A DNA stretch of 64,000 nt, taken from IMG/VR virus record IMGVR_UViG_3300005535_000017, positions 82,331 through 146,330 of that record; one strand, written 5' to 3'. The notes beneath the pieces were generated by a model. That model worked only from the letters and a program-made list of their open reading frames with translations. It ran no database searches and had not been told where the DNA came from. Shown in pieces: positions 28,868 through 51,731 of the stretch (positions are counted from its first letter, which is position 1; the number at the start of each line of letters is the position of its first letter). This stretch comes from a virus (lineage: Duplodnaviria; Heunggongvirae; Uroviricota; Caudoviricetes). The translations under genes were made by a program, and so were the position numbers.

Positions 28868-29569
28868 TCAGTTTTTTGCAGCGTATTCTTTCTGCCTTCT
28901 CTCGAGCTTATTGAGCAAACGCTTGCTGGGGCGGGCTTCTCGATTGAGCATTGCGTCGAGCTGACGAGGAGAGATTTGCTTTATCTCGAACCACACACTC
29001 GTCATCATCTGCATGTGCTCTCTGGCAGACGAGAGTTGGATAGAGAGCTCAGTGTTGTAAGGGCGCAGTGCCATTGTCGAGGCAAGTCGAAGGAAGGGGC
29101 GCCAGGGATGTGAGTCCTTGGTCATCCTCTCGATCTGACCGAAGTGCTGCGCATCGATGCGTTGGAGGTACCCGGCCCAAGTCTCCTCGACATGAGGCGG
29201 CCAACCATCACTGGCGTATGTATTGGCCATCTGGTACAACGAGGTAATCTCCAAGTCCGTGAACCTCAGCGGGTCCTTTCGGATGTTGAGTACTCGGAGG
29301 ATCTGATCGACGTCACGCCGGAGGATGCTATTCTCGGTGTGAAGTCGCATCAGCGTCTGGCGGTTGATAGCGAATGGAAGAGCTTTCTCTCCGTCGCTCT
29401 TCCGTTGAGAATCACGGAGAGCGATGACGTCCTCCTCGAGGATGTCTACCCGGTGGCCGTTCTTCACCGTGCGCAACTCCCCTCGCTGAACCTTGTAGAA
29501 GATGGTTCGCTCGCTGCAGCCAAGTACCTTTGCCGCCTCCTTCTTTGTCAAGAATCGGCTTCCCACCAA
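28868..29569 (-). CDS. helix-turn-helix DNA-binding protein (putative transcriptional regulator)
   Basis: 233 aa. N-terminal LTKKEAAKVLGCSERTIFYKVQRGEL is a classic excisionase/MerR-like HTH. Diverges from the head-gene block. Confidence 0.6.
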   Translation of the reverse strand: MVGSRFLTKKEAAKVLGCSERTIFYKVQRGELRTVKNGHRVDILEEDVIALRDSQRKSDGEKALPFAINRQTLMRLHTENSILRRDVDQILRVLNIRKDPLRFTDLEITSLYQMANTYASDGWPPHVEETWAGYLQRIDAQHFGQIERMTKDSHPWRPFLRLASTMALRPYNTELSIQLSSAREHMQMMTSVWFEIKQISPRQLDAMLNREARPSKRLLNKLERRQKEYAAKN

Positions 29570-29616
29570 GGTCTTCCTCCTATGAATATGATGCTAACTC
29601 AGAAGCCGGAGAACTC

Positions 29617-30594
29617 ATGGACGTTTTCGAGCAACTTCTGACGTCGGGATCCAGCAAGGGCGTCAGCCCCGAGACGTTGGAATACATCGGTCAGAAGGCC
29701 TCGGCTGAGTTCCTGGACAAGAAGACGCCGCTGAACGAGTCGATCGTGAAGCTCGCCTCCCAGCATCCAGAGCTCAACAACGAGCACATCCACCGCATCG
29801 TCGAATTCGCCAACAACTCCACCTTCCAACATCTCTTCGAGAAGAACAAGGACAAGAACGTCCACTTCCCGATTGCAGATCCGGGAGTGGTGATTCGGGA
29901 TCTCCGGGATGGCGGATCTCCGGCTCACAGCGGCAAGGTCTTGCACAACAAGGCCGACTACCATCGAGCGCCGATCCGGGAAGAGAAGGACGGCTCAATG
30001 GGGATGGACGGGTCGGGGGCTGGTGATCCCGAATCTGGTCTCGCCGACCTCTTCAACCGCAACAACTCTTCTGGGCAGTTCGGCCAGGGAGAGCCTGTCG
30101 AGAAGGTCGCGAGTGCTGCCGGGCTCGATCCGTCTTGGGAGGGCTCGGCCAATCCGGTCAACGACGTCTATGCCGAGCACCTCAAGCTCAAGCGCTCCTA
30201 CGATGAGCTCGCTGCGGCCCACGAAGGTGCGGACCTGATGTACAAGCAGGCCTCGGCCGACTTCTACAAAGCCGCTCGGGAAGAGGTGCTCAACCCGGAG
30301 GGCGCTGGCTTCCGTGGTGTGGTGGAGGCTGTCTCGGTCGTTGCCGCTCTCGGCCGTGAAGACATCACGAAGCTGGCAGAGAGTCTCCTGCGAGCCGGCG
30401 TCTCGGAAGAGCAGCTCAAGAGCCGCACGAAGACTGCCGGCAAGCTGGTCAACCCCAATCACCCACTCGTCGCTTCGGCGTCGGCGATGATGAAGTGCGC
30501 CCATGAGCGTTCGATCGCACATGAGGCACTTCTCGATGTAAAGAAGGGTCTCGATCAGACGACTCAGTTCCTCAAGACGGCGGCACGGAAGTGA
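29617..30594 (+). CDS. hypothetical protein (325 aa)
   Basis: Start moved to the ATG at 29617 (GGAG at 29606-29609), because the track start 29530 overlaps the divergent HTH gene. Confidence 0.5.
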   Translation: MDVFEQLLTSGSSKGVSPETLEYIGQKASAEFLDKKTPLNESIVKLASQHPELNNEHIHRIVEFANNSTFQHLFEKNKDKNVHFPIADPGVVIRDLRDGGSPAHSGKVLHNKADYHRAPIREEKDGSMGMDGSGAGDPESGLADLFNRNNSSGQFGQGEPVEKVASAAGLDPSWEGSANPVNDVYAEHLKLKRSYDELAAAHEGADLMYKQASADFYKAAREEVLNPEGAGFRGVVEAVSVVAALGREDITKLAESLLRAGVSEEQLKSRTKTAGKLVNPNHPLVASASAMMKCAHERSIAHEALLDVKKGLDQTTQFLKTAARK

Positions 30595-30884
30595 CCTTCC
30601 GCCAAGCTGCATATTCCCGTGCTGTCCTCCGCGGGCTCGCCGGCGAGAAGGTCGCGGGTGTGCTCGGCGTAGTGGGAGGAGCAGCGAAGGGGATCGGCCG
30701 TGGTGCCAATTGGGCCTGGCAGAAGTCGATGAAGCAGAACGGCCCGGTGATGGGCACGATCGGTCTTGGTCTGGGTGCCGCCGGTCTCTACGCTCTCGGC
30801 AAGAGAGCAGTCAATCAGACTCAGGCTGCGTACCAGGGATTCAATCCCGAGGTTCAGGCCTACACCCGCCAGTCGCCCTACTAG
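30591..30884 (+). CDS. glycine-zipper protein (97 aa)
   Basis: VAGVLGVVGGAAKGIGRG and MGTIGLGLGAAGLYALG. Confidence 0.5.
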   Translation: MTFRQAAYSRAVLRGLAGEKVAGVLGVVGGAAKGIGRGANWAWQKSMKQNGPVMGTIGLGLGAAGLYALGKRAVNQTQAAYQGFNPEVQAYTRQSPY

Positions 30885-30893
30885 GAGCTCAAG

Positions 30894-31523
30894 ATGAACA
30901 GCACGCAGCTCATGGAGAAGGTCGCGGAAGTCGCGCCCGAGACGTACGACTTCATCATGCAGACCCGCGGCGAGATCAGCGAGAGCCCGTGGAAGGACGA
31001 GTTCCTCGAGGAGTTCGACGGCATCCTGAAGAAGGCTGCCATGGACTGGAAGTCGATCGGCTCGTCTGTCGGGCAAGGAGGTCTTGCCATGGCCAAGGGT
31101 CTGGGTGCCACGGCACTCGGCGGCATCGGCCTGGCGCTCGCTGGTGACGCCTATGATGCCACTCGTCGAGCCATCACCAAGACCCGCAACTACAAGCGGA
31201 TGATGGCGTCGAACCCAGATCTGAAGGACAAGCCGGCGCACCAGGTCCAGGCAATCTTCTCCACCCTTCACCGCTTCAACCCGGACTTCTCGGGAGACCC
31301 GGTCGTCTCTGGAAGCTTCGTCCGTCAGCATGTCGACATGGCCCAGAGCGAAGAAGGTGTGGGTGCGGTCGGTCTCGACGCCATGAAGGCCATCGTCGAA
31401 GGGCGCAAGGGTATCAATGAGAGCCGCCGGTTGCCCAAGCCGGAGATGCTCAGGATGCCCGATCGCGAGATGGAGATGCTCCAGAAGTCCAAGCTTCGCC
31501 ACGACCTGGGCGCCAAGAAGTAA
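30894..31523 (+). CDS. glycine-zipper protein (209 aa)
   Basis: GQGGLAMAKGLGATALGGIGLALAG. Confidence 0.5.
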   Translation: MNSTQLMEKVAEVAPETYDFIMQTRGEISESPWKDEFLEEFDGILKKAAMDWKSIGSSVGQGGLAMAKGLGATALGGIGLALAGDAYDATRRAITKTRNYKRMMASNPDLKDKPAHQVQAIFSTLHRFNPDFSGDPVVSGSFVRQHVDMAQSEEGVGAVGLDAMKAIVEGRKGINESRRLPKPEMLRMPDREMEMLQKSKLRHDLGAKK

Positions 31524-31526
31524 GCG

Positions 31527-33932
31527 ATGCTCGTCAAGCAGGTTCAGTTCTTCGGCAAGAACGATGAGGGGCAGATCTTCTGCCAGCCCTTGCTCGATGA
31601 CGGCTTGGTAAAGACTGCCTCTGCCTCATCGCGAGCGAACCTGCATCCTCAGATCGCCGACTTCGTCAGGACTGTTCGCCCCAGCAAGCACGGCATCTAC
31701 GTCCTGGTGAACGCCATGGGCGCCGGCGAGATCTGGGGCTCCAACATCAATGGCGACCACTTCCCTGAGAAGGAGCTGATCCACTCTCCGAAGGACTGGG
31801 AGAAGCTTCCCGCCACGCGGATGAAGGAGATCGGCAAGAGCTGGGAGTACGGCTTCCCCACCTTCATGGGGGCGCATCCGTACAAGCACCACGTCAACAA
31901 GGACTCGTCGCGGGCATTCGGCTCGGTCGAGCTCGCCGCGTGGAACCCAAAGATGCATCGCGTGGAGCTGGTGGTCTATCTTGACCGCGAGCTCTGCAAG
32001 CGTTTCGACGCTCAGGATGTGATCGAGAAGATCGAGCGGGGAGAGTTCCCGGACGTCTCAATGGGCTGCAAGGTGCCCTACGACGTCTGCTCGATCTGTC
32101 AGCACCGGTCGAAGACTCCGAAGGACTACTGCCACCACGCGAAGAGCATGATGAATGTCATCCTGCCAGATGGCAGGAAGGTGTTCGTCTACAACCCTCG
32201 CCCTCGCTTCTTCGACATCTCCTTCGTCTTCATCGGAGCCGACAAGACGGCCAAGGTCATGGCCAAGCTTGCGTCAAAGGGCAATCAGGTCTGCATGGGT
32301 GAGTACTGCACCATTCCTCGACTCAGCGTCGATGTTGGTGAGCAGTTCTCGAAGTTCGCCGGTGAGCAAGACCCTACGGCCCCGCTTCGTGAGGAGCATC
32401 CTACCTGGCTCGGCAATCACCAGGACGGGATGTACGACCCGACCTTCAACGACTTCATCGGCAACAAGTCTCGTACTCAGATCATTCAAGAGACGAAAGC
32501 TGCCAAGCCGGCATTCGAGGCGCGGCTCTATCCTCCGGCTCAGCTCGAGGCAAATGAGTCGTATGACGCGCTCGTCAACCTCGACGCTGCTCGTGAGAAG
32601 ACAGCTTCAGTCAAGACGGCCAATGACCCAATTCAGAAGTTCATCCACGTCCAAGGCATCCCGATCATGCTGGAGTGGTTGAAGGGTCAGACGCGTAAGT
32701 ACTACTCAAAGGCCGATCCTTCAAAGGTGACCTACCAGAAGCTGATGAAGGCCGATTACGGCTACATCCCAGCGACCGTAGATGCCGATGGCGAGCAGCT
32801 CGATGTCTATGTGGGGCCGAGCCGCGATTCAGAGTTCGTCTTCATGATCAATCAGCTCAAGGACGACGGCTCGTTCGATGAGCGAAAGGTCATGATCGGC
32901 TATCGCGATGAGGCGGCGGCAAAGAAGAGCTATCTCGACCATATGCCTGAAAGGCGTCTTGGGCAGGTGTCGAGGACGACAATGGGTGAGTTCAAGAAGA
33001 CCCACCTTGTCAGTGCTCGAAAGGCACGCAAGACCCGCGATGCCGAGGCAGTGAAGATCGCGTCAGCGACGTGCGGATGCCACGGACTTGGAGATGATTG
33101 CGGCGGTACGGCTGAGAAAGTCGCGCACGCCGTCTTTCCAGGTACGCGTAATTCTGAAAAATCCGCTTCCCATAGGAAGCTGAGTGAGATCATAAAAACA
33201 ATACCGGCAGGTCCTTTTTCGAAAGAGACATTGCCAAGACTGGAGAAAGGGGAGAGCTCGATCCCAAACAAGGCGCTGGACGAGATGGGCAAAATGGATC
33301 TTACCGAAGCCCTCTCAACCCCCGCTATGATGGGCATCGTTCTTAAGCCCCATGAGTTTCAGAGGGTGATGCTGGTGCGAATCGGAGAGAAGCCGCTGGC
33401 GGATGAACTCGACAGGAAGGGGGAGGTCTTCGGGCCTTCTTCGGACGTCGACGAGTCCCTGCAGGTGAATCCCGATCGCATCGATCGTGCTCTCAAAGAC
33501 CTCCTTCAGGCTCTGGGCATGGTGGGTGAGCGGTCAGTAGCCGCCACTCCTCTTGCTCGTCGAATGGAGCGTCTTGAAGCACGCCGTGCCGATCCGCGGA
33601 AGAGCGTCGAGAAGACCGCCTCCGCCGATCCCCTCATGAAGAAGCTGTCAGCCGCCTACAACGGCTACCGGCGCAGCATCGTGAAGAAGGCCACCGCCAT
33701 CCAGAAGTTCCTCGTCTCCGACCCCCAGCTCGCTCCCGAGTCATTCGGTAGCAGCATGGTGCAGGCCTTCGCCGGTGGGGTCGACAAGACGGCCAGCTCG
33801 AGCGTGTTCAGCCCCGACTCGCTCGCATACCTGACCGGGGCGCACCACACGGACCGGGCCATCCATATCGCCGATCAAGGCGTTCGGGTGTCCCTCGCCC
33901 AGACGGGCGCACTCGCAGAGGCGCTGTACTAG
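31527..33932 (+). CDS. putative prohead maturation protease-domain protein (HK97 S78-like N-terminal domain) with long C-terminal extension
   Basis: 801 aa. The N-terminal 230 aa carry S78-like landmarks in order: GIYVLVNAMGAG...NGDHF, HPYKHHVNKDSSRAFG (HxD...G), and VSMGCKV (cf. lSiGf catalytic Ser motif). Positioned upstream of scaffold-like and capsid genes. Confidence 0.4.
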   Translation: MLVKQVQFFGKNDEGQIFCQPLLDDGLVKTASASSRANLHPQIADFVRTVRPSKHGIYVLVNAMGAGEIWGSNINGDHFPEKELIHSPKDWEKLPATRMKEIGKSWEYGFPTFMGAHPYKHHVNKDSSRAFGSVELAAWNPKMHRVELVVYLDRELCKRFDAQDVIEKIERGEFPDVSMGCKVPYDVCSICQHRSKTPKDYCHHAKSMMNVILPDGRKVFVYNPRPRFFDISFVFIGADKTAKVMAKLASKGNQVCMGEYCTIPRLSVDVGEQFSKFAGEQDPTAPLREEHPTWLGNHQDGMYDPTFNDFIGNKSRTQIIQETKAAKPAFEARLYPPAQLEANESYDALVNLDAAREKTASVKTANDPIQKFIHVQGIPIMLEWLKGQTRKYYSKADPSKVTYQKLMKADYGYIPATVDADGEQLDVYVGPSRDSEFVFMINQLKDDGSFDERKVMIGYRDEAAAKKSYLDHMPERRLGQVSRTTMGEFKKTHLVSARKARKTRDAEAVKIASATCGCHGLGDDCGGTAEKVAHAVFPGTRNSEKSASHRKLSEIIKTIPAGPFSKETLPRLEKGESSIPNKALDEMGKMDLTEALSTPAMMGIVLKPHEFQRVMLVRIGEKPLADELDRKGEVFGPSSDVDESLQVNPDRIDRALKDLLQALGMVGERSVAATPLARRMERLEARRADPRKSVEKTASADPLMKKLSAAYNGYRRSIVKKATAIQKFLVSDPQLAPESFGSSMVQAFAGGVDKTASSSVFSPDSLAYLTGAHHTDRAIHIADQGVRVSLAQTGALAEALY

Positions 33933-33984
33933 AGATGGAGTCCATCTCGGAGACGACACGCTTTTGTCGAGAAGGAGAAATTAC

Positions 33985-34977
33985 ATGAGCATGGATACGT
34001 GGCTGGCCCAGGCGTACAACACCAACGGCGCGAGCGAGGACCTCGAGAAGATCGCTCAGGCCGAGATGGCGCAGAACATGGCCCAGCAGGAGGGCCTGGA
34101 TCTGTCGAACCTCTCGCCCGAGCAGATCGAGGCTCTTGGCCAGGAAGTTCTCGGGCCGCAGGGCCAGGGACAGCAGCCGCAGGGTGCCGCTCCGGGCGCT
34201 CCTCAGCAGCCCGGCGTTCCCCAGCAGGGAATGCAGCCCCAGCAGCCGCAGGCTCCTGGTGCCGAGGGCGGTGGTGAGCTGACCGAAGAGCACGTGCAGG
34301 AAGCCCAGCAGGTGCTGGCCAACCCGCAGGCCTACGACCCGGCGATCGTCCAGGAAGCCCAGGCGATCATGCAGGTCGTCGAGCAGATGCAGGCTCAGCA
34401 AGCCGGTCAGCCAGGTCCCGAGATGGCCAAGGTCGCCGAGGCCCAGGCCAAGTTCGAGGAGGCCGACTTCCTCGGTCGCGTCATGGCGCACGCCTTCAAT
34501 CAGGAGTCGGAGAAGATCGCCGCCTCCAAGCAGGCGAACATGATGGGCGCCGCAGGTGGCCACCTGAAGCACCTCGGCCAGCAGGCTGCTCACCACATGG
34601 GCGCTGCCGCCGGCGCCGCCAAGCACCACGCTGGCAAGGCGATGGGAGCCGCGGGCGGTCACTTCGCCAAGCACCCGGGTCATGCTGCTGCCGCCGGCGC
34701 GGTCGGTGGTGCGGCGGCCATGCACGGCGCTCATCACATGATGAACAAGGAAGCCACCGTCGCCGCGATCGAGAAGGCGGCGATGCAGCAGGCCGCCAAC
34801 ATCCTGCAGGCCAACGGCATCGACCCGGCGACTGGTCAGCCGGCCCAGCAGGCCGCTCCGCAGATCGCTCCGGCGGGCGCGGTCCCGGCTCCCCAGCAGA
34901 ACTCGCAGCAGGCGCTCGGTGAGCTCGTGGAGAAGCGCGCTCATCAGATCCTGCGGGGGCTCGGCTACAACATCTGA
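33985..34977 (+). CDS. low-complexity Gln/Ala/Gly/His-rich protein (scaffold-like?)
   Basis: Start set at the ATG at 33985 (AAGGAG at 33972-33977); the track uses the TTG at 33964. QQPQG repeats, then GAAGGHLKHLG...GAAKHHAGKAMGAAGGHF. Confidence 0.45.
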   Translation: MSMDTWLAQAYNTNGASEDLEKIAQAEMAQNMAQQEGLDLSNLSPEQIEALGQEVLGPQGQGQQPQGAAPGAPQQPGVPQQGMQPQQPQAPGAEGGGELTEEHVQEAQQVLANPQAYDPAIVQEAQAIMQVVEQMQAQQAGQPGPEMAKVAEAQAKFEEADFLGRVMAHAFNQESEKIAASKQANMMGAAGGHLKHLGQQAAHHMGAAAGAAKHHAGKAMGAAGGHFAKHPGHAAAAGAVGGAAAMHGAHHMMNKEATVAAIEKAAMQQAANILQANGIDPATGQPAQQAAPQIAPAGAVPAPQQNSQQALGELVEKRAHQILRGLGYNI

Positions 34978-35042
34978 GGTCTCAGGGTGCCCGAGGCGGG
35001 AGGGGATGGTCCTTCCCGCCTCGGTTCCTCTCAGGAGAGAAG

Positions 35043-35513
35043 ATGCCGAAGTGGATCCACGATCGTGCGGCACACATCAGGGCGGAGAACCCCTCCATGC
35101 CTGAGAGTGAGTCGTGGGCGATCGCCACTCAGCAGTCCCATGCGACGGGACACTCTCCAAAGGGGTACGGAACGGCGAAGGGGCGGCACGAGGCTCATCA
35201 GAAGTATCCGACGCCCGGTGATGACGAACAGAAGGCGAGTCCCAAATCCAAGACGGCTGGCATTTCGGTGCCCTTCAGCTCGGATTTGGTAAGCGGCTTC
35301 TGTGAGGAACTGTCTTCGATCTTCCGTGAGAAGACAGCCGGTCTCCTGCCCATGCCGGAGAACGGTCTCACACAGATGAAGCTGACGAGCCCGAAGCCGA
35401 CCATGGGCGCGAAGAAGAACATCGCGGCGTACTCGCAGCCGAAGAATCTCCCCTCGACTTCGCCGTCGCAGGGAACTCAACCGACCGCGGGCGCGCCCCA
35501 GGTCAGAACCTGA
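35043..35513 (+). CDS. hypothetical protein (156 aa)
   Basis: AGGAGAG RBS upstream. Basic N-terminus, Ser/Pro-rich C-terminus. Confidence 0.45.
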   Translation: MPKWIHDRAAHIRAENPSMPESESWAIATQQSHATGHSPKGYGTAKGRHEAHQKYPTPGDDEQKASPKSKTAGISVPFSSDLVSGFCEELSSIFREKTAGLLPMPENGLTQMKLTSPKPTMGAKKNIAAYSQPKNLPSTSPSQGTQPTAGAPQVRT

Positions 35514-35526
35514 CAGGAGCAAGAGA

Positions 35527-37080
35527 ATGAGCGTTCTGCCACTCCAGGACATGATCGCGGGCGCCATCAAGACGGCGAGCGCCAAGATCGCCTCCGAGGC
35601 CCACAAGGAGCCCGAGAAGGTCAAGAAGCTCCTGGCGTACGAGAAGAAGGAGCACGGGCACATCCCCTCCCCGCACGAGGAAGAAGTCGAGTGCGAGTCG
35701 AAGGAGAAGATGGCCTACGCTGCTCTCATCTCTGACGACCACGTCGAGAAGCTGGCGTCGGCAGTCGACTTCCTCGCGACCCACCTCGGCGACATTGCCG
35801 CTCCGGGCCCGATCGCTCAGGCGCTGGCCAAGACCGCTATGAAGCCGGGTGCAGGCGGTGGTACCGCCGGCGGCAAGTCGGTGCCGAATCCGGCTTCGGC
35901 TGCTGGAGCTCTCGAGACCACGCAAGCGATCGGCGGCTCGCAGAAGTACACCAAGAACAAGGCGAAGGGCGAGCAGGCCGAGGACGAGCACAACAAGGGG
36001 CTCGAGCGGAACGAAGGCAATCCGCACGGCGCCAAGACGCACCTCGAGACCAACTACCATGAGGCGCCAGGCAACAACCACGGTTCGGTTCCGCACCACG
36101 AGTACCCCGCCAAGGGTCCTCTGGTGGCCGGTCCGTCGGGCGCTCACAACAAGGGCACCAACGCCGCGTCCCTGAAGACCGCCAGCTTCGCTGGCAAGGC
36201 GACGGAGTTCGTCGCTCACCATGCGGCACAGCATCCTCGTGCGACCGCGGCGGCTGGTGGAGCTCTGCTCGGCGCCATCCCTGGTGCAGTCGGCGGCGCC
36301 GCGGCCGGTGGCGAAGGTCACCGCGCCTCGGGCGCTCTGAAGGGTGGCCTCGCCGGCGCCGCCATGGGCGGTGCAATGGGCGGTGGTGCCATGCACAAGC
36401 ACCTGGGCAACATGGCGAAGGCCGCTTCAGCGCAGGAAATCGCGCGTCAGCACATCCTCATGAAGCTCGCCGGCGAGGACGTGATGAAGGCAAACATCGA
36501 TGGCGGCGGCACGACATCGCCTCTGGCTGGCAAGGGCCAGCTCAAGACGATGAAGGCCGGCGAGGAGTCGCCCACGCAGGGCGGCACGGCGGCCAACAGC
36601 CAGGACGGGAACTCGGGCACCAAGCTCGTGGACTCGAACAAGGCGGCCATCGACTACACGAAGCGTGATGCCAAGAAGCTGGTGGTCAATCCTCTCAAGG
36701 AGGTCCTCGACCAGCCGGCATTCTCGGAGAAGCACGACAACAAGCTCCAAGAGAACCTGCGGAATACTGGCAAGGCCGGTGTGAAGATCGCGGGTGCCGC
36801 AGTGCAGTCTCAGCTCCAGAAGATCGCGAGCGGTGGCTGCACCTGCAACTCGAAGGGCGAATGCCAGTTCTGCACCATGAAGGCGAAGTTGGCCAACATG
36901 GGCGGGATGGGCGGCACGGGTGGCGGCATGAACCCGATGGCTGGAGCAGGGGAAGGCCACGACGGCTGCACCTGCGGCCACACGGGTGAATGCCGAGTGT
37001 GCAAGCTCGGCGCAGCTATTAGCGACGCCAAGGGCAAGCACCCGGGTGAGGTCAAGGAAGGCAACGCAGGCTGCTACTGA
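35527..37080 (+). CDS. Gly/Ala-rich glycine-zipper protein with duplicated C-terminal Cys4 knuckle motifs
   Basis: 517 aa. GGALLGAIPGAVGGAAAGG...GGLAGAAMGGAMGGGAM. C-terminus has two copies of GCTC-x4-GEC-x-(F/V)C: GGCTCNSKGECQFC and DGCTCGHTGECRVC. Confidence 0.5.
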   Translation: MSVLPLQDMIAGAIKTASAKIASEAHKEPEKVKKLLAYEKKEHGHIPSPHEEEVECESKEKMAYAALISDDHVEKLASAVDFLATHLGDIAAPGPIAQALAKTAMKPGAGGGTAGGKSVPNPASAAGALETTQAIGGSQKYTKNKAKGEQAEDEHNKGLERNEGNPHGAKTHLETNYHEAPGNNHGSVPHHEYPAKGPLVAGPSGAHNKGTNAASLKTASFAGKATEFVAHHAAQHPRATAAAGGALLGAIPGAVGGAAAGGEGHRASGALKGGLAGAAMGGAMGGGAMHKHLGNMAKAASAQEIARQHILMKLAGEDVMKANIDGGGTTSPLAGKGQLKTMKAGEESPTQGGTAANSQDGNSGTKLVDSNKAAIDYTKRDAKKLVVNPLKEVLDQPAFSEKHDNKLQENLRNTGKAGVKIAGAAVQSQLQKIASGGCTCNSKGECQFCTMKAKLANMGGMGGTGGGMNPMAGAGEGHDGCTCGHTGECRVCKLGAAISDAKGKHPGEVKEGNAGCY

Positions 37081-37102
37081 GACGACGGATCAGGAGACGA
37101 CC

Positions 37103-37477
37103 ATGAGCATGCAGAAGATTTCCAGCGAGCAGGCGGCCCAGATCCTGGGGCAGGTCGGTCCGACCCTCCGCGCTCAGCAGCAGAAGATCCAGTCCCAAGA
37201 GGCGACGATCGGAGAGCAGCAGGAGAAGCTGGCTTTCTATCAGCGCCGCGAAAGGGCGGAGAAGATCGCCATGCGTCTGGAGGCCAAGGGGCTCGACCCC
37301 GAGACCAACTTCCAGCAGAAGGTGGATGGTCTGATGGACCCCGCCCAAGACCTCGACGTCATCGAGAAGGCCGTCGACATGTCCGCACCGCAGATCAAGC
37401 TGGCTTCGCTCTCCGACAACCCGGGGAATCCCTCGGACGCGAAGAGCGCCCTCGAGGCAGCGATCCTCGGCGACTAA
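37103..37477 (+). CDS. hypothetical coiled-coil protein (scaffolding-like?)
   Basis: 124 aa from the ATG at 37103 (AGGAGA RBS). Gln/Glu-rich predicted helix. Sits just upstream of the capsid region. The track ORF 36986-37477 starts inside the previous gene. Confidence 0.4.
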   Translation: MSMQKISSEQAAQILGQVGPTLRAQQQKIQSQEATIGEQQEKLAFYQRRERAEKIAMRLEAKGLDPETNFQQKVDGLMDPAQDLDVIEKAVDMSAPQIKLASLSDNPGNPSDAKSALEAAILGD

Positions 37478-37504
37478 CCCGATCGACACGCAAGGAGAAC
37501 GAAG

Positions 37505-37981
37505 ATGAGCCTGGCTCCAAACCTGACCCTGATCTCCGAGGTTCTTCCGGTCCAGCGCCGCGACTTCACGCTGACGGACCCGACGATCCTCAACCCGAAC
37601 GCCACCAATCCGCTCGTCGATGGCGAGTGGCTCGAGATGGATACCACGACGTACACCGTCAAGCGCGGCACCGGTGAGGCGGCTTCGGCCTCCTGGCAGG
37701 TGTTCTCGCTCCGCGGCCAGTACGACACGCAGGCCATCAGCAAGTCGACCTTGCTGTGGGCCGGTGCCTACGAAGCGGACACGACGATCGTCAACACGGC
37801 GGGTCTCGCGGTGGGCAACTTCCTGGTGGTCGCCGACTGCACCATCGGCGGTCTGACGAAGCGCGGCGTCATCAAGGCCGCCGGCACCGGTCAGCACATG
37901 GTGGTCGGCATCGTCACGCGCCTGACGGCGACCGGAAAGATCCGGTTCCTCCACCAGGGCTTCTTCCAGATCACCATCTGA
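37505..37981 (+). CDS. hypothetical protein (158 aa), possibly head decoration/accessory
   Basis: AAGGAGA RBS. Immediately upstream of the putative capsid gene. No motif. Confidence 0.4.
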   Translation: MSLAPNLTLISEVLPVQRRDFTLTDPTILNPNATNPLVDGEWLEMDTTTYTVKRGTGEAASASWQVFSLRGQYDTQAISKSTLLWAGAYEADTTIVNTAGLAVGNFLVVADCTIGGLTKRGVIKAAGTGQHMVVGIVTRLTATGKIRFLHQGFFQITI

Positions 37982-38026
37982 ACTGGGACGCGAAAGCGAA
38001 CCCGTAGAACGGAAGGGAGAGATAGC

Positions 38027-39145
38027 ATGAGCGTTCCAGCGCAGGTTCTGAATGAGATGTTCAGCGGTAAGCTGAACTCGTCGGAGGGCAAGGAGAAGAT
38101 CGCCGAAGTCGGGTCGGTCTACATCCGTGACCGTCTCCGTGAAGTGTGCTTCGTGGACAAGATCCAGCCGCCGGAGCCGGTGACTCGCACCGACTGCCAG
38201 CGCTCGGTCAACCACGACACCCTGGTGAAGATCGTCGACATCGAGCCGCAGTCTCGCGCGCTGTCGATCACCTTCCGCGGCCAGCCGACCGCGCGCTTCA
38301 TCCGCGCGCCTCGTGCCGAGGTCCCCTTCTTCACGATCTCCTCGGAGAAGTTCGAGAAGACCGAGCAGGAGCTCCTCGCCTACGAGATGCCGATCACCAA
38401 GATCATCGAGGACAACTCGGTGAAGGACCTCCAGGAGGTCAAGGATCGGACGTGGCTGCTGTTCGTCGAGGCCGGCATCCAGGCGATGCAGACCGACGGC
38501 AACGGCGGCGTGCAGCCGATGAACGTCACCAGTGTGGTGGCGGGCACGACGAAGCAGATCCGCGTCGTGAAGGGCCAGGGCGCCATCGCGGCGGGTGCGA
38601 ACGACTTCATCATCCACCCGATCCTCCGCCCGGACCTGGTGAACCTGTTCAAGCTGATCGACGGCAACCGCCTGCGTGCGGAGCGGCTCCTGATGACGGA
38701 GCCCGACTACGACGACATCCTGTCGTGGACGCTGCAGGACTTCGGCGACAAGATGCAGTCGGAGACCGCGGTCGACGGCTACAAGTACAACACCCTGCTG
38801 GGTCGCAAGCTGATCCGCACGGTGAAGACCGACATCCTCCGCGTCGGTAACGTGTACTGCTTCACGGCGCCGGAGTTCCTCGGCAAGAACTACGTGCTCA
38901 ACAACACGAAGTTCTACATCGACAAGATCGCGAACATGATCACCTGGCAGTCCTGGATGGACGTCGCCGTGGCGGTCATCAACATCGCGTCGATGGCCAA
39001 GCTCGAGCTGTACGGCGGGTCGGTGACCCCGACCTCCACCGACACGGGCTTCGCGGCCCTGCTGCCGGTCGACGAGGACCAGCTCGGTGCGGTCAACAAC
39101 AAGGTGGACTCCGGTCTGAAGTTCCCGAACGTCTCGCAGTTCTAA
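38027..39145 (+). CDS. putative major capsid protein
   Basis: 372 aa. Strong RBS GGAAGGGAGAG. Followed by the strongest terminator in the window. Preceded by protease and scaffold-like genes. Size fits HK97-fold major capsid proteins. No sequence motif verified. Confidence 0.5.
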   Translation: MSVPAQVLNEMFSGKLNSSEGKEKIAEVGSVYIRDRLREVCFVDKIQPPEPVTRTDCQRSVNHDTLVKIVDIEPQSRALSITFRGQPTARFIRAPRAEVPFFTISSEKFEKTEQELLAYEMPITKIIEDNSVKDLQEVKDRTWLLFVEAGIQAMQTDGNGGVQPMNVTSVVAGTTKQIRVVKGQGAIAAGANDFIIHPILRPDLVNLFKLIDGNRLRAERLLMTEPDYDDILSWTLQDFGDKMQSETAVDGYKYNTLLGRKLIRTVKTDILRVGNVYCFTAPEFLGKNYVLNNTKFYIDKIANMITWQSWMDVAVAVINIASMAKLELYGGSVTPTSTDTGFAALLPVDEDQLGAVNNKVDSGLKFPNVSQF

Positions 39146-39180
39146 TCGAGACGGCGCGGGGCGCCGCGCAATCGTAGTTC

Positions 39181-39228
39181 AGCGCCCAGAGGAGGGAGGA
39201 TCCCTTCAGCCTCTGGGCGCTTTTTTCT
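39181..39228 (+). terminator. rho-independent terminator after capsid gene
   Basis: Perfect 12-bp stem agcgcccagagg / cctctgggcgct followed by TTTTTT. Preceded by a second GC-rich near-palindrome at 39150-39178. Confidence 0.8.
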
Positions 39229-39260
39229 GCCACCTCCAATCGGAGGTAGGAAGCGAGAGG

Positions 39261-40037
39261 TTGGAGATGTCGTACAAGCTGAAGAACACGGCACTCGACC
39301 ACGACAAGCGCTTCCTTCACCGCAAGGCTTCCAAGATGCAAATGGAGCCAGTCATTGGCGGCCGTCGTCTGCGCATTCGCCAGTCGATGGTCATCAGTGA
39401 CGAGCTCTTCGAGCACAACAGGGCCAACCTCGAGCTGTGGAACAAGTGGGGTGTGGTCTCTTGGGAGAAGGTCGGTGGGGAAGGCGGTCGGAGGGTCCCG
39501 ACGAAGGAAGAAGTCATGGCGGCTGGCTACTCGGAAGAGGCCGCCGAGTCGATCATCGAGCGGGAGAAGCGGCTTGCCGCCGAAGAGGCTGCTGCTCCCA
39601 AGGAGACTCTGTCCGAAGGCGGGCTCCTCTCGCCGCAGCCGGGCGAGTTCGATGTCTGGGTGGGCGAAGTGGGCACCAACCAGATCGGCGTGGTGAAGGC
39701 TCTTCGTGAGAGCACTCAGCTCTCAATCAAGGAGGCAAGCGACCTTCTCGGCATGGCTCCTGTGATCGTGCTGGGAGGTGTCGACGAAGCTGCGGCCACC
39801 AAGCTCGCCCAGTCCTTGGTCGATGCCGGAGCCAAGGCCAGCGTGCAGAAGAGCGGGACAGCGCCGCAGCCCTCGCTGATCCCCGAGACGCTCGTGCCCG
39901 AGAACTACACTCCGACGCCGGAATCGAAGCCGTCCGAGGATGCCTCGAGCCTCTTCTCAGAGCCGTCGCAAGCGGAGACGACTCGCGTCGAGACCAAGCC
40001 GCAGGCGCAGCCCAAGAACCCGAAGAGCAAGAAGTAA
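39261..40037 (+). CDS. protein containing a ribosomal bL12 (L7/L12) C-terminal domain fused to novel N- and C-terminal regions
   Basis: 258 aa. Residues about 128-200 GEFDVWVGEVGTNQIGVVKALRESTQLSIKEASDLLGMAPVIVLGGVDEAAATKLAQSLVDAGAKASVQK align with E. coli L7/L12 CTD [69 protein letters not shown]. No L10-binding NTD. Pro/Ser/Glu-rich tail. Confidence 0.8.
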   Translation: MEMSYKLKNTALDHDKRFLHRKASKMQMEPVIGGRRLRIRQSMVISDELFEHNRANLELWNKWGVVSWEKVGGEGGRRVPTKEEVMAAGYSEEAAESIIEREKRLAAEEAAAPKETLSEGGLLSPQPGEFDVWVGEVGTNQIGVVKALRESTQLSIKEASDLLGMAPVIVLGGVDEAAATKLAQSLVDAGAKASVQKSGTAPQPSLIPETLVPENYTPTPESKPSEDASSLFSEPSQAETTRVETKPQAQPKNPKSKK

Positions 40038-40049
40038 GGGAGGCTGAAC

Positions 40050-40472
40050 ATGGGCATGGTCGTCAGCATCACGAACATCACCGACGCGCCGGAGTCCAAG
40101 CAGACTCCGACCCGTCTTGCCATCTACACCGCTCTCCTCGACCCCGGCGAGACCCTCACTCTCCCGGCATCGATGGTGGATGCGCGTCTTCGCAAGCTCG
40201 AGAAGGATGGGCTCGTCGTCATCGGCCAGCTCCCTTCGTGGTACGAGGCCTCGAAGATGCGGAAGGTTGGCCGCTCTCGGCTCACGCAGGAAGAGCTCGA
40301 GCAGAGGCTCACCACCAAGCCGAAGGCGAAGGAAGAGCCCAAGGCCGAGGCAGCGCCCACCGAGGCTCCCAAGGAGGAGTCCGCCCCCGTCGACGTGTTC
40401 TCGATGGAGGTCACCAAGAAGAAGACCTACAAGCTCGACGAGCTGGACGTTCCGAAGACCGACAAGAAGTGA
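40050..40472 (+). CDS. hypothetical protein (140 aa), Lys/Glu/Pro-rich C-terminus
   Basis: AAGGGAGG RBS before the ATG. Confidence 0.5.
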   Translation: MGMVVSITNITDAPESKQTPTRLAIYTALLDPGETLTLPASMVDARLRKLEKDGLVVIGQLPSWYEASKMRKVGRSRLTQEELEQRLTTKPKAKEEPKAEAAPTEAPKEESAPVDVFSMEVTKKKTYKLDELDVPKTDKK

Positions 40473-40480
40473 GGTAGTCC

Positions 40481-40996
40481 ATGCCGTTCTTCGACGACGT
40501 GGACGGGGATATTGTTGGCAACAATGTCCCCAGTATCCCCGTTCCACTCCAACAACTCATCAACACGGTACGCCTGTACCTTCGGGACTACCCGGAGCTC
40601 AACAGGCTCATTCGTGGCCAAGAGCATTCGGACCGGATGATCATGTGGGCCGTCGCCGATGCAATCGACGATTGGAACTCTACGCCTCCGCTCATCCCTC
40701 GAGTTGATCTGCAAAACTTCCCTTCGAAGAGCCTTCTTCTTCGGGGCATCGTCATTTCTCTTCTCGAGTCGATCGGTCTCCTGATGACGAGAAACCACCT
40801 CACCTTCTCGGATGGTGGTATTCAGGTGGGGGTGAGCGACAAAACGCCGCTCATCCAATCCTGGCTGCAGCTCATCGGGAACCGGTACGAGGAGAAGAAG
40901 CAGAAGCTCAAGATCGCGATCAACATCGAGCTCGGTTGGGGTCAGGGCATGCACTCGGAATATCTCTGGACCAACGGCTTCTACGGGGGCTGGTAG
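40481..40996 (+). CDS. hypothetical protein (171 aa)
   Basis: ORF in the structural block. No motif. Confidence 0.5.
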   Translation: MPFFDDVDGDIVGNNVPSIPVPLQQLINTVRLYLRDYPELNRLIRGQEHSDRMIMWAVADAIDDWNSTPPLIPRVDLQNFPSKSLLLRGIVISLLESIGLLMTRNHLTFSDGGIQVGVSDKTPLIQSWLQLIGNRYEEKKQKLKIAINIELGWGQGMHSEYLWTNGFYGGW

Positions 40997-41038
40997 ACTC
41001 GGGTTCCCACTTAGTGGGACCGAGAGGAGAATCACAGC

Positions 41039-41176
41039 ATGGCCTTCATCACCGGCGCAAAGTGCCAGATCTTCATCGATCCGAACGCACTGACCAAGTT
41101 CCTGACCACCAATGTCACGACGGTCATTGCGATCGTTGCGACCAACAGTGGTCAGCTCATTCTCTTCTACACCTGA
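41039..41176 (+). CDS. possible small hydrophobic protein (45 aa)
   Basis: ATG at 41039 preceded by GAGAGGAGAA. MAFITGAKCQIFIDPNALTKFLTTNVTTVIAIVATNSGQLILFYT. Not in track (<60 aa). Confidence 0.3.
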   Translation: MAFITGAKCQIFIDPNALTKFLTTNVTTVIAIVATNSGQLILFYT

Positions 41177-41186
41177 GAGGTGACTC

Positions 41187-41720
41187 GTGGCTTCAGATGA
41201 CGACTTCCTCGATGGGATGAAGAACAAGGAGGACGAGGCGAAGGAGTGGGCCGATGCGGCTCGCTTCTTCATCGACGTTCGCCAGCCGAAGGAACATCAG
41301 CAGGAGCAGACGAAGGAAGCCATGGACCTTCGAGCTCTGGGCCACAGCGCGCTGGAAGCAGCTCGCCGGTTCGAGCCCACAGGAACCATCCGAGCCGTCA
41401 CCGAGTCGAAGCCTGCTGCGATCGCAGGTCTCGCCGGCGCCGCGGCATTCGGGCTGGGAATGGGGCTGAGCTCTCGCGGCAAGAAGGAGCTGGGCGGGCA
41501 GAGCAAGCTCGAGCACTCTCTTCAGACCGCGAAACACGAAAGAGAAAGTCGGCCAGAGCCGAAGGGCTTCGCCGGGAAGATCACCAACAATATCGCCGAC
41601 TTCAATGCCAACCTCGCATCGACCGCGAGGAAGCATCCGGTTAAGGCTGGCCTGCTGGCTGGTGTCGGCGGTATCCATGCTGGCACCAAGCTGCTGCACA
41701 CCCTGACGGGGAAGGGCTGA
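41187..41720 (+). CDS. glycine-zipper protein (177 aa)
   Basis: GTG start after GAGAGG. AAIAGLAGAAAFGLGMGL and LLAGVGGIHAG. Confidence 0.5.
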   Translation: MASDDDFLDGMKNKEDEAKEWADAARFFIDVRQPKEHQQEQTKEAMDLRALGHSALEAARRFEPTGTIRAVTESKPAAIAGLAGAAAFGLGMGLSSRGKKELGGQSKLEHSLQTAKHERESRPEPKGFAGKITNNIADFNANLASTARKHPVKAGLLAGVGGIHAGTKLLHTLTGKG

Positions 41721-41721
41721 G

Positions 41722-42966
41722 ATGAACATCGTCACCGCTGCAGCACTGCTCGAGAAGAGCAAGCTCGAGGAGTTCGAGGACGCGATCGTCAAGACCGCGC
41801 AGGCCGAGATCCAGAACCACGCTGGCGAGCTCACCGAGTCGCTCAATAGCCTGTTGGATCAGAAGGACAGCACTCCTCGCCTCGATCGGCTGGTCCAGCA
41901 AACCAAGCTCGCAGCCCGGATGGGTCGCGACATGGCGAAGGAAGCAGGGATCGCCGGCACGATCATGGGCGCCGTGAAGCCTCTCGCCGGCAAGGCTCTG
42001 GGCTATGCGGCGATGCGTCCTCAGCGTGCAATGGCCGCCGGTGGTGCTGCACTCGGAGCTCTAGGTGGCGCAGCCACTGCTCAGCCTGGCCACCGGATGT
42101 CCGGGGCGCTTGGTGGAGCAGCTCTTGGTGGCGCTGCTGGCTACGGCCTCTCTCGCATCCCGAATGGACCGACGCTGCAGAAGGGCGTGGCCGACTACGC
42201 CGCCCGTGGCTACCAGGCTCTGGGCTCGCCGAAGCTCGCATTCGCTCCCATGGGTAAGGCAATGGGAGCCGGAGCTCTTCTTGGTGCAGTTGGAGGGGCG
42301 CTTCATAAGTCGCCCGGAGAGGCGCAGGGTCTCGCCGCAGGCCACCATCTTCGCAATGCTCTCGTTGGTGCAGCCGGTGGTGCGGCTCTCGGAGCAGGTG
42401 CTACGAAGATGCCGACGATGATGGGCAAGGCGGAGGGTGCGATCGCGCACGCTCCCCGCGGGCCGATGCAGTCCTTCCACAACCCGCACGCCATGCCGGC
42501 TGCCGCTCCCTACTCGGCAACCGAGATGCAGCAGATGAGCCGGGTCAAAGCGATGGCCAATTCGCCCGAGGCAGAAGCAGCGAGGAAGGCCCGCGCCATG
42601 GATGCCATGCGCCAGAATATGCAGGCCAACCCGACGATGTATGGCCGCTCAGTGGCGAAGCCGACAACCCCGCCGGGTGCGACGATGGCGGCGAGACGGC
42701 CCGCTGCTTCGGTCGATCCGACTGGTGCCACGCTGGCGAAGATGGCGCAGCGTGGGGGACGCGAGTTCCTCAAGCTGGCCTTTTCGATGAGTGCTCAGGC
42801 TGAGCCGGGCGATCCCACCGGAGCTCAAGAGCCGGAAGCGGAGGCGCAGTTCCAGGCGGAACCGCAGCGCCCGCCTTCGAAGCCTGCTGCCGACCTCTTT
42901 CAGGCTCTTCGTCACCTCACGCCCAAGATGATGAGGAACCTCCAGGTCGCCCAGCCAGGCTCGTAA
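41722..42966 (+). CDS. glycine-zipper protein (414 aa), Ala/Gly/Met-rich
   Basis: AAGGAALGALGGAATA, GALGGAALGGAAGYG, LLGAVGGAL, GAAGGAALGAGA. Confidence 0.5.
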   Translation: MNIVTAAALLEKSKLEEFEDAIVKTAQAEIQNHAGELTESLNSLLDQKDSTPRLDRLVQQTKLAARMGRDMAKEAGIAGTIMGAVKPLAGKALGYAAMRPQRAMAAGGAALGALGGAATAQPGHRMSGALGGAALGGAAGYGLSRIPNGPTLQKGVADYAARGYQALGSPKLAFAPMGKAMGAGALLGAVGGALHKSPGEAQGLAAGHHLRNALVGAAGGAALGAGATKMPTMMGKAEGAIAHAPRGPMQSFHNPHAMPAAAPYSATEMQQMSRVKAMANSPEAEAARKARAMDAMRQNMQANPTMYGRSVAKPTTPPGATMAARRPAASVDPTGATLAKMAQRGGREFLKLAFSMSAQAEPGDPTGAQEPEAEAQFQAEPQRPPSKPAADLFQALRHLTPKMMRNLQVAQPGS

Positions 42967-42975: not shown

Positions 42976-43884
42976 GTGAATCTCCAGATCCTCGAGTTCC
43001 GCGCGCAGTCATTCGATCTCGATCACGTCGACCTGTTCTGGAAGACAACAGACTTCTGGACGGGTCAGCCGACAGACGAGAACATCCTCGCGTACACCTT
43101 TCAGGTGCTGCGGTCGGAATCGCCTGCGGGTCCATGGGATCCCCTGACGAAGCCTTTTCAAGACCAGTACTACTTCCGAGATGTCTCTCCAGCCATCCTT
43201 CACAAATGGCGAGAGCTCTACTACCTCCTACGCGTCACTGATCAGCGCACTGGGGAAGTGAAGGACTTCGGCCCGACAGGGCAGATTGCCGAACCTGATC
43301 TCATTGCGCTCGAGATCATGCGGCAAGAGGATGTCCTGTTTCGCGAGTACGCCGGCAGGAAGTGCTGGTACTTCCCGATCAAGACGTTCGGTCCCAAGTG
43401 CATCTGCTACGACCGAGTGAAAGGCAAGAGGACCAAGAGCAACTGCGTCACGTGCTACGACACAGGCTACCTGGGCGGCTACCTCTCACCGATCGAGTGC
43501 TACGTGCAGATCGATCCCAGCTCGAACAACAACCAGGAGACTCCTCTCGGTAAGCAGCAAGCCAACAACACGACTGCCCGGCTCATCTCCTTCCCACCTA
43601 TGATGCCCGACTCCATACTGGTCGAGGCTGAGAACAGGCGATGGAAGATAGTGACAGTGGCAATGACAGCACGGCTTCGAGCAGTCGTGCATCAGGAGCT
43701 GACGATCCACGAAGTGCCTCGCGGCGACGTGGAATACAAGCTGCCCGTCAACTTCGCCGATCTGACGAATGTCCAGGCGTCGGCCGAGAGAAACTTTACC
43801 AACCCAACCCACGTGGACGATGACTCCCAGCGACTCGACTTCTTGGCTGTTTACGGGTACAACCCCCGAGGAACCGTCCGCTGA
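42976..43884 (+). CDS. hypothetical virion-module protein with Cys cluster (302 aa)
   Basis: GTG start after AAGGAGG. CWYF..C.C....C..C cluster (KCWYFPIKTFGPKCICYD...SNCVTCYD). Confidence 0.5.
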   Translation: MNLQILEFRAQSFDLDHVDLFWKTTDFWTGQPTDENILAYTFQVLRSESPAGPWDPLTKPFQDQYYFRDVSPAILHKWRELYYLLRVTDQRTGEVKDFGPTGQIAEPDLIALEIMRQEDVLFREYAGRKCWYFPIKTFGPKCICYDRVKGKRTKSNCVTCYDTGYLGGYLSPIECYVQIDPSSNNNQETPLGKQQANNTTARLISFPPMMPDSILVEAENRRWKIVTVAMTARLRAVVHQELTIHEVPRGDVEYKLPVNFADLTNVQASAERNFTNPTHVDDDSQRLDFLAVYGYNPRGTVR

Positions 43885-51729: not shown

Positions 51730-51731
51730 AT

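Follow-up and report, generated by a model that had tools for sequence, protein, structure and literature searches.

Why should a large phage carry, scattered through the genes for its virion, a series of proteins with glycine-zipper (GxxxG-repeat) helices? The question is raised by the stretch of DNA analyzed here, a window of 64,000 nucleotides (nt) from the virus record IMGVR_UViG_3300005535_000017 (positions 82,331–146,330 of the record), from an uncultivated, soil-type phage of ~200 kb, for which 57 proteins were used in the counts. A preliminary description of the window had listed 11 open reading frames (ORFs) with similar Ala/Gly segments, regarded them as paralog-like copies, and proposed that they are internal virion or ejection proteins forming a trans-envelope channel, or a membrane-remodeling set. 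All 11 are present at the starts that it gave (Table 1; ORFs are named here by their first position), that of 33985 being an ATG inside a TTG-initiated ORF at 33964, and the 97-aa and 209-aa ORFs (30591 and 30894) are called identically by independent gene callers on other metagenome contigs. Our analyses indicate that the enrichment in zipper helices is real, that the 11 ORFs are not one family, and that most of them carry a short motif, which we call K-phi-A, that also occurs on the capsid protein and other proteins of the head module. The reading that we favor, with a confidence that stops a little short of even, is that the zipper proteins are head-internal core or cargo proteins and that the K-phi-A motif is a signal for head targeting and/or maturation cleavage.

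The pattern that had been written down for the segments, (L/A)xGxxGGxxxG(A/L)xxG, is matched literally by none of the 11 ORFs, and its core, GxxGGxxxG, by four. A loose test for zipper segments (16-aa window, at least five Gly and at least 14 small or hydrophobic residues) was passed by nine of the 11, ORFs 2379 and 33985 failing, and found 24 segments within 14 of the 57 proteins, compared with 3.0 in a global shuffle and 5.7 ± 2.1 in per-protein shuffles. The same test gave a similar density in a 58% G+C (GC) region of Ralstonia phage RSL1, where it responded to the Gly-rich β-structure of tail fibers; the loose metric is thus unspecific, and a stricter, helix-type metric was adopted, which allows only G, A, L, I, V, M, and F and demands [GA]xxxGxxx[GA] in addition. 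By this measure there are 12 segments in seven of the 11 ORFs, against 0.73 ± 0.89 (maximum 3) in per-protein shuffles and none in the RSL1 control (50 kb, 58% GC), while the whole genome (181 kb) of the “orphan” Salmonella myovirus Arash, the nearest cultured relative (capsid identity 28%), holds 11 in five proteins. GxxxGxxxG occurs 24 times in the 11 ORFs, in seven of them, where shuffles give 4.9 ± 2.4. Nor is GC-driven composition the cause, because non-gene ORFs of the other frames are poor in zipper segments, with seven loose segments per 30,287 aa. The enrichment is therefore no by-product of the ~60% GC of the window. The segments are paired in 3871, 20981, 24361, 30591, and 41187, and several stand in 41722. 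The weakest member is 2379, which has no segment in either test; its positional ortholog in one relative (L089) has three.

A common origin of the 11 ORFs finds no such support. BLASTP with composition-based statistics against an 11-sequence database brought no pair below E = 0.07; without the correction, E values went down to 1e-10, and because these vanish when it is applied, the BLASTP similarity is compositional. An all-vs-all profile alignment was run with hhalign on ortholog alignments from related loci, with each of the 55 pairs also scored against the reversed target, and the scores equaled those of the reversed controls in all but two pairs: 3871 with 44344 (89%, 16 columns, confined to the N-terminal leader) and 24361 with 44344 (39%, covering the leader and the beginning of the zipper). 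A hidden Markov model of the leader of the 44344 family finds in the window exactly 3871, 24361, and 44344, and the part that can be aligned among these three is this leader, FxDELxKIA. As regards ancestry, then, the description as paralogs does not hold, and the possibility that the likeness is compositional largely does; the zipper feature itself is no artifact, because zipper helices are kept in the positional orthologs of the small proteins. Every one of the 11 ORFs has conserved positional orthologs in related genomes, and in the 3871 and 44344 families the glycines keep their positions, while in the larger proteins 35527, 33985, and 30894 the Gly/Ala block is variable and often missing from orthologs. 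Judged by their sequences, the 11 ORFs are heterogeneous, small, fast-evolving proteins of the head, portal, and neck modules of a contractile-tailed phage, not paralogs, and since they make up no gene family they should not be annotated as one.

The clearest case of conservation is the family of ~100–130-aa proteins of which ORF 44344 is the type member, with 69 matches in a library clustered at 50% identity, nearly all of 90–135 aa. At ~30% identity, its members keep E12, K15, and I16 of the leader and G38 invariant, with L13 and G42 at ≥90%; G38 and G42 together form one GxxxG, and the helix that contains it is followed by a second Gly-containing helix. Searches of Pfam, PHROGs, and NCBIfam returned only sub-threshold matches for the zipper ORFs. 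PF05433 (Glycine zipper 2TM, gathering threshold 24.2 bits) scored 18.4 bits for 20981 and 16.6 bits for 41722, with no match in the other eight ORFs scanned or in the separately scanned 44344.

What recurs across the unrelated ORFs is the K-phi-A motif. In an unbiased 4-mer scan against per-protein shuffles, KTAS, KLAS, EKIA, EKTA, EKVA, and EKLA were top-ranked beside Gly words, and the motif can be written as hydrophobic-x-K-(T/L/I/V)-A-(S/A/G/E), with a strict form, K[TLIV]AS, and an extended form, AFxDELxKIA, present in three ORFs (ALFDELTKIAEDKER and SVEKTASADP are examples of such peptides and candidate protease substrates). The window has 21 copies of the strict form, where 1.56 ± 1.24 are expected (maximum 7 in 1000 shuffles), and 20 of EK[ILVT]A, where 1.8 are expected. 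The wider motif lies within the first 40 residues of 15 of the 57 proteins (expected, 2.2 ± 1.5), among them nine of the 11 zipper ORFs but only six of the 46 other proteins (Fisher p = 2.4e-5); these six are the capsid protein, a protease-like protein, the scaffold-position protein 37100, a helicase, a C39 peptidase, and 2939. Across related loci, leader and zipper are likewise associated (odds ratio 3.3, p = 3.6e-6).

K[TLIV]A[SAG] has 37 sites in plus-strand genes and none in 3,809 aa of minus-strand genes (p ~3e-4), and no strict site occurs in the RNA polymerase, reductase, terminase, or a 1223-aa tail protein, the looser pattern giving three internal matches in RNA polymerase and reductase. 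Further sites lie on the plus strand in 957–2375, 18023–20041, and 29614–30594, and the three ORFs of the interval from the protease-like to the capsid gene (33985, 35527, and 37100) have three to seven each, ORF 35527 having seven, of which five are strict. In the leader logo, the position after K-phi is Ala (77%), followed by A, S, E, or G. Among 54 homologs of 30894, K9 and A11 of the leader are invariant; the leader of 33985 is kept in its orthologs; and in 30591 the motif directly adjoins a hairpin of two zipper helices. ORF 35043 has an internal leader, in which F86, E89, and I93 are the only invariant columns, and this leader is N-terminal in a separately encoded module of other genomes. 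By these patterns, the motif appears to behave as a short linear signal at module boundaries and at the N-termini of head-module proteins. A literature search with the leader strings returned nothing relevant. In a more distant clade (L084, IMGVR_UViG_3300033066_002009, ~5962–9939), consecutive head-module proteins, a helicase among them, begin with a different shared peptide (for example, MLRASYNDGYAASLSRLGLVKLAD and MTLVKSYERGMIVGLSRFKV), which suggests that N-terminal addressing peptides may be general, with lineage-specific sequences.

The preliminary placement of the set among terminase, protease, and capsid genes is confirmed. The protease-like polyprotein 31527 has six K[TLIV]AS sites, at residues 29, 247, 358, 510, 696, and 754. 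Those at ~29–32 and 245–249 bracket the protease-like domain and recur in many orthologs, and those at 358 and 510 bracket an InPase domain (residues 371–492). The InPase domain (PF18823) also matches PHROGs labeled minor head and DarB-like antirestriction proteins, which suggests packaged cargo. A profile of the protease-like domain matched no protease family among PDB sequences and in Pfam. A prohead-type protease is the default candidate for the cutting enzyme. A candidate for a second processing enzyme is the stand-alone C39 peptidase, which has the Gln, Cys, His, and Asp of its domain at the expected places and matches, below cut-off, the NCBIfam models for bacteriocin ABC-transporter peptidases and FapD; it is an alternative candidate for the cutter, since the leader, but for the missing glycines, is like those of the double-glycine type. 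A scan of the relatives found the C39 gene in only one other locus.

A relative of 210 kb (L101) ties the peptidase to the zipper proteins: a single gene (1–780) there encodes the C39 peptidase, AEKTAS, two zipper helices, and a J-domain. The two corresponding ORFs of the window, C39 and zipper/J (20167–21463), overlap by 20 nt in different frames and meet at the position of the KTAS junction of L101. Another relative (L100, 4554–6815) has a 753-aa ORF composed of a leader (FRDELEKIS), at least three zipper segments, and a helicase, so that C39 peptidase, zipper/J-domain module, and SNF2 helicase form a network of fusions across the window, L100, and L101. The J-domain described earlier in ORF 20981 is probable. 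The ORF has an HPD motif (within KHHPDRGG), an alignment over helices II–III, and J-domains as all of its ten best PDB matches (E 0.005–0.13); its score against PF00226 stays below threshold (17.8 bits against 27.8), and its ortholog in L101 has a weak precomputed DnaJ match.

If the reading that we favor is correct, the motif would direct proteins to the head and/or mark the sites of maturation cleavage, and the zipper proteins, as core or cargo, would join the prohead during its assembly and be trimmed inside it. Tight packing of helix against helix would come from the zippers and could serve oligomerization inside the head. Alternatively, the zipper helices could insert conditionally, and independently of Sec, into the host inner membrane after ejection; such insertion could tether co-delivered enzymes, and relatives do fuse zippers to the SNF2 helicase and to the C39 peptidase with its J-domain. 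A virion location is plausible on the basis of proteomics, which is weak and comes from the distant Arash. ORFs 29614, 30894, and 31527 have syntenic homologs in Arash, gp220, gp221, and gp222 respectively, and all three of these Arash proteins were detected by LC-MS (liquid chromatography coupled to mass spectrometry) in sucrose-gradient virions (PMC10585845). Arash has five strict-zipper proteins (gp4, gp97, gp213, gp224, and gp241), and all but gp241 are in the published LC-MS virion table, gp4 and gp97 with high spectral counts; RNA polymerase subunits and the helicase are abundant in the same preparations (PMC10585845).

Several observations weigh against this reading. The virion table of Arash is unspecific, listing as it does 116 of the 272 proteins, many enzymes among them (PMC10585845), and because the table is so long the detection of four of the five zipper proteins is not significant (p = 0.11). 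K[TLIV]AS is not enriched in Arash (7 against 4.3 expected), so that the motif signal does not transfer to it. The protease assignment is a single PHROG match (E = 2.4e-6). Two zipper ORFs, 20981 and 41187, have no N-terminal motif, and the motif of the capsid protein could be structural, because the N-terminal region around it is conserved throughout. In the larger proteins the zippers lack positional conservation: for 35527 only 15 of 30 orthologs have a segment, and for 33985 only 17 of 28. Predicted structures offer little help: the AlphaFold model of 44344 (16 sequences) is unusable (pLDDT 48), and the model of 30894 has no Foldseek match at E ≤ 0.001 in PDB or BFVD. The latter model (pLDDT 80) is an all-helical bundle in which the zipper lies around the turn of a long helical hairpin, and its best Foldseek match is an uncharacterized phage protein (E = 2e-3). 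Finally, Hessa-scale sums over the best 19-residue windows (scale values entered by hand) range, for the zipper segments, from +2.6 to above +6 kcal/mol, compared with -3.5 for the canonical transmembrane (TM) helix of ORF 51732.

With such sums, membrane insertion is not predicted by standard criteria. The zipper segments are only marginally hydrophobic and not classical TM helices of the Sec type; they may be hairpins that insert under certain conditions, or soluble motifs for the packing of helices. On reading the N-termini we saw no signal peptide or lipobox; they are acidic or amphipathic, with neither a hydrophobic h-region nor a lipobox Cys. A holin or pinholin is ruled out by the hydrophobicity (sums of at least +2.6) and by the location among head and portal genes, and a tape measure protein by the module in which the ORFs lie, the one PHROG match of this kind, for 20981, being weak (E = 0.074). 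A channel across the envelope, as in podoviruses, is unlikely: Arash is a contractile-tailed myovirus with a PAAR spike, and the window encodes a weak, sub-threshold match to DUF2345, a VgrG-associated spike domain. Of the functions first proposed, therefore, the trans-envelope channel is disfavored and membrane remodeling has to reckon with segments of marginal hydrophobicity, while an internal virion or ejection role draws support from the head and portal position, from the motif common to the capsid and protease-like proteins, and from the detections in Arash.

The explanations that compete with this reading differ in how much of the evidence they leave aside. That the resemblance is nothing but the Ala/Gly low complexity of a 60% GC genome, without function, would account for the loss of similarity under composition-based statistics, for profile scores no better than reversed controls, for the failure of the literal motif, and for the poor positional conservation of the Gly/Ala blocks in 35527 and 33985; the excess of strict segments over shuffles and over the GC-matched control, the poverty of alternative frames, the number of GxxxGxxxG copies (24 against 4.9), and the invariant G38 and nearly invariant G42 in a family of ~30% identity largely refute it, and we give it very little credence. 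Descent from one ancestral zipper gene by repeated duplication, with divergence past the reach of alignment, is improbable. Short helical modules do lose detectable similarity quickly, three members have leader and zipper in a common architecture, and in relatives the slot between the conserved genes 40481 and 42976, which in the window holds 41187 and 41722, has a varying number of zipper proteins (280–690 aa, with two to six zipper segments), as local turnover would produce. Yet profile–profile comparison finds no signal in the zipper regions, the ORFs range from 97 to 517 aa with differing architectures, every family has conserved non-zipper motifs of its own, and zippers are fused also to unrelated enzymes.

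The remaining rivals concern function. The proteins might be soluble components of a prohead core or scaffold, in which GxxxG/AxxxA motifs pack helices without any membrane and which are degraded or expelled at maturation. We hold this unlikely. In its favor, 33985, 35527, and 37100 lie in scaffold position with their several motif sites, the Gly/Ala blocks, rich in His and Lys, are too polar to sit in a membrane, and the modeled bundle of 30894 looks soluble. This rival leaves unexplained why helicase, J-domain, and C39 peptidase have zippers attached to them, why small hairpin proteins stand near the portal and neck genes, and why the GxxxG of the ~100-aa 44344 family is invariant. Rather unlikely, too, is a role in the membrane of the infected cell, outside the virion, as assembly anchors or in superinfection exclusion, the regulation of lysis, or the recruitment of chaperones. 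In T4 the inner membrane is where the assembly of the prohead begins, and ORF 20981 couples two zipper helices with a probable J-domain, an arrangement that resembles the membrane-anchored DjlA of Escherichia coli; the weak PF05433 matches of 20981 and 41722 point the same way. The proteins lack signal peptides and strongly hydrophobic TM segments, however, canonical TM proteins are encoded separately at 51178–52034, the N-terminal motif is common to capsid and protease-like proteins, and homologs or analogs were detected in Arash virions. A bacteriocin-like system, in which amphipathic leaders would be removed by the C39 peptidase from membrane-active peptides rich in GxxxG, as double-glycine leaders are from class II bacteriocins, would make sense of the genuine C39 domain, of the GxxxG-rich cargo, and of the peptidase–zipper fusion through a KTAS linker in L101. 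If the cut fell two residues past the Ala of K-phi-A, the Glu, Leu, and Ile of the leader would be at -8, -7, and -4, which matches the double-glycine consensus. We nevertheless hold it improbable: the predicted site is Ala-Ser, Ala-Gly, or Ala-Glu and never Gly-Gly, up to E = 1 the NCBIfam scan matched neither a bacteriocin nor a leader-peptide model, no ABC (ATP-binding cassette) exporter was seen, and few relatives have the C39 gene. The motif in the capsid protein and on both sides of the protease-like domain points to a prohead protease instead.

A bolder version of the head-cargo reading can be imagined, which we regard as a speculation with a small chance of being right. The clade would use an undescribed cargo-addressing system, in which a leader of ~15 residues (AFxDELxKIA, core K-phi-A-S) on many unrelated proteins, enzymes included, is read by the prohead-type protease or, unusually, by a C39 peptidase that is associated with the virion and takes the leader as a degenerate form of the double-glycine type. 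The zipper hairpins would be its membrane-active cargo, forming, once ejected, rings or pores in the inner membrane of the host; these might depolarize the cell, or serve as an anchor or enclosure for the incoming DNA and for the RNA polymerase, helicase, and J-domain co-chaperone ejected with it.

Head-internal proteins processed by a protease are a known kind, and it is plausible that the system of the window belongs to it, with a different signal, a glycine-zipper cargo, and an associated C39 peptidase as its new elements. The capsid-targeting sequence and internal proteins of T4 and the head proteins of phiKZ and SPN3US offer the closest likeness: a short N-terminal peptide on several unrelated head-module proteins, here recurring at the domain boundaries of protease-like and scaffold-position proteins, and a head apparently rich in accessory proteins. 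For giant phages, three reports document many head and ejection proteins that are trimmed by a protease (PMC5694885, PMC7411985, PMC10052503). The proposed signal in the window differs in having the K-phi-A form. T4 has (L/I)-x-E and phiKZ (S/A/G)-x-E as its site, and an I/V-x-E rule would cover only a subset of the sites of the window (KIAE, KVAE). We know of no glycine-zipper cargo in T4, phiKZ, or SPN3US, and a literature search combining glycine zipper with phage or virion returned nothing relevant and no such cargo for these three.

Other systems resemble single aspects. Proteins of the PF05433 family (Rick_17kDa_Anti; SlyB/OsmB-type lipoproteins) likewise have two adjacent Gly-rich GxxxG helices of marginal hydrophobicity. 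Members of the SlyB/OsmB type typically begin with a lipoprotein or signal-peptide N-terminus, whereas the ORFs of the window score below threshold, have acidic amphipathic leaders without a lipoprotein signal, and lie in a phage head module. Class II bacteriocins share the amphipathic leader with conserved Glu-Leu...Ile, the GxxxG-rich helical cargo, and a C39 peptidase encoded nearby; they differ in the Gly-Gly site, the ABC-transporter fusion, and the leader model match, none of which is found here, and in that the motif of the window is present in structural proteins too. By analogy with encapsulins, a short conserved peptide on unrelated proteins may direct them into a shell of the HK97 fold; the encapsulin cargo-loading peptides are usually C-terminal and of different sequence. 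Tightly packing Gly-rich helices are found also in the hydrophobic Gly-rich segments of tape measure proteins and in the hairpins of ATP synthase c-subunits, which insert into or line membranes, and in the 44344 family it is the first of the two hairpin helices that contains GxGxGxG. There is no sequence homology to either, and the ORFs of the window are much shorter and lie outside the tail module.

If the motif is what we suggest, it would be a label from which the packaged proteome of a widespread, uncultivated clade of ~200-kb phages (>130 related IMG/VR stretches) could be read: the head cargo would become listable from sequence, as helicase, C39 peptidase, InPase domain, and zipper proteins, and the leader might be used, as a tag, to load foreign proteins into capsids. 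The glycine-zipper hairpin family, which has at least 65 clusters at 50% identity and for which neither Pfam nor NCBIfam has a model, is a candidate for the engagement of the host membrane by virion-delivered proteins, a process that is poorly understood in large myoviruses.

Table 1. The zipper ORFs and other features of the window, in order of position where one is given
Feature	Position	Strand	Length	Leader or motif	Zipper segments (nt)	Remarks
ORF 2379	2379–2930	+	183 aa	K-phi-A motifs at residues 27 and 36	none in either test	Ala/His-rich; upstream of portal gene
ORF 3871	3871–4479	+	202 aa	AAFADELAKIAG (K16)	4195–4248, 4267–4332	Directly upstream of portal gene; start overlaps 3' end of preceding gene
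Portal	4480–6528	+				31% identity to Arash gp204
RNA polymerase	10514–16870	+	2118 aa			Beta and beta' fused in single ORF
Peptidase_C39, stand-alone	20167–21000	+	277 aa	N-terminal FSDEFQQIQRLKLAS		PF03412, 53.7 bits (cut-off 22)
ORF 20981	20981–21463	+	160 aa	no N-terminal K-phi-A	21017–21094, 21155–21217	Zipper helices followed by probable J-domain
SNF2-type helicase	21460–22917	+		N-terminal NLGKIAG		
ORF 24361	24361–24909	+	182 aa	GFYDEFEKISA (K17)	24460–24510, 24541–24612	
Large terminase	26540–28381	+				
ORF 30591	30591–30884	+	97 aa	GEKVAG (K20)	30633–30707, 30738–30803	
ORF 30894	30894–31523	+	209 aa	LMEKVAE	31053–31151	Homolog of Arash gp221
Protease-like polyprotein	31527–33932	+	801 aa			Residues ~30–247 match phrog_18299 (head maturation protease)
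ORF 33985	33985–34977	+	330 aa	DLEKIAQ (K22)	one strict segment, PGHAAAAGAVGGAAAMHGAH	Gln/Ala-rich with His/Gly/Ala block; scaffold-like position between protease-like and capsid genes
ORF 35527	35527–37080	+	517 aa		36247–36399	Central Gly/Ala zipper block, variable; orthologs in 72 loci
Major capsid protein	38027–39145	+		N-terminal EGKEKIAE (K24)		Motif conserved in related loci
ORF 41187	41187–41720	+	177 aa	no N-terminal K-phi-A	41418–41483, 41640–41696	
ORF 41722	41722–42966	+	414 aa	IVKTAQ (K24)	at least four, 42022–42414	Pro/Ala/Met-rich tail
ORF 44344	44344–44658	+	104 aa	ALFDELTKIAE	44422–44496	GxGxGxG/GxxxG helix; basic tail
Class II ribonucleotide reductase	within 957 to ~52000	+				
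Neck and tail genes						Matches to Arash gp233, gp234, gp236, gp237
RNase HII		-				

The phage has no near DNA relative among the INPHARED phages (megablast with 20 kb of the window). A search with the capsid protein led to 132 related IMG/VR stretches, with 62–88% identity among those kept, many of them on contigs of 190–199 kb and further homologs on contigs of 207–210 kb, and the same phage is present in several independent metagenomes. The main coding block of the window runs on the plus strand from 957 to about 52000. The fused RNA polymerase corresponds to gp206 and gp216 of Arash, where they are two separate genes and their products are among the most abundant proteins of virion preparations. 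No tRNA genes were found in the whole window.

Some further features of the head and neck modules may be recorded. The C-terminus of 35527 (36810–37060) has two CxC-x(5,6)-C-xx-C motifs, GGCTCNSKGECQFC and DGCTCGHTGECRVC, which are conserved in many orthologs and may form zinc knuckles in this scaffold-position protein. Directly downstream of the capsid gene, 39261–40037 encodes a C-terminal domain of ribosomal protein L7/L12 (PF00542, 47.6 bits), which looks like a lineage-specific addition because relatives share only the N-terminal ~70 residues. A gene of the Endonuclease VII family (PF02945, 80 bits) is inserted in the neck module at 43769–44347, and a Cys/His-rich ORF just upstream of the terminase gene (26106–26540) resembles it by eye; both are likely homing endonucleases. 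In 9292–10513 and 28400–29500 the main strand has no convincing ORF, and the ORFs listed there are oddly Ser/Arg-rich.

At 51178–52034, two small proteins with canonical hydrophobic TM helices, clearly distinct from the zipper set, may be membrane proteins or proteins of lysis: ORF 51178 combines a coiled coil with a TM helix at the C-terminus, and ORF 51732 has its TM helix, the one with the summed value of -3.5 kcal/mol, at the N-terminus. The minus-strand block that follows (52035–64000) encodes a response-regulator receiver domain (53645–54007), a VWA protein (54770–56959), a MoxR-like AAA_5 ATPase (57621–58601), and a collagen-repeat protein (58728–59588).

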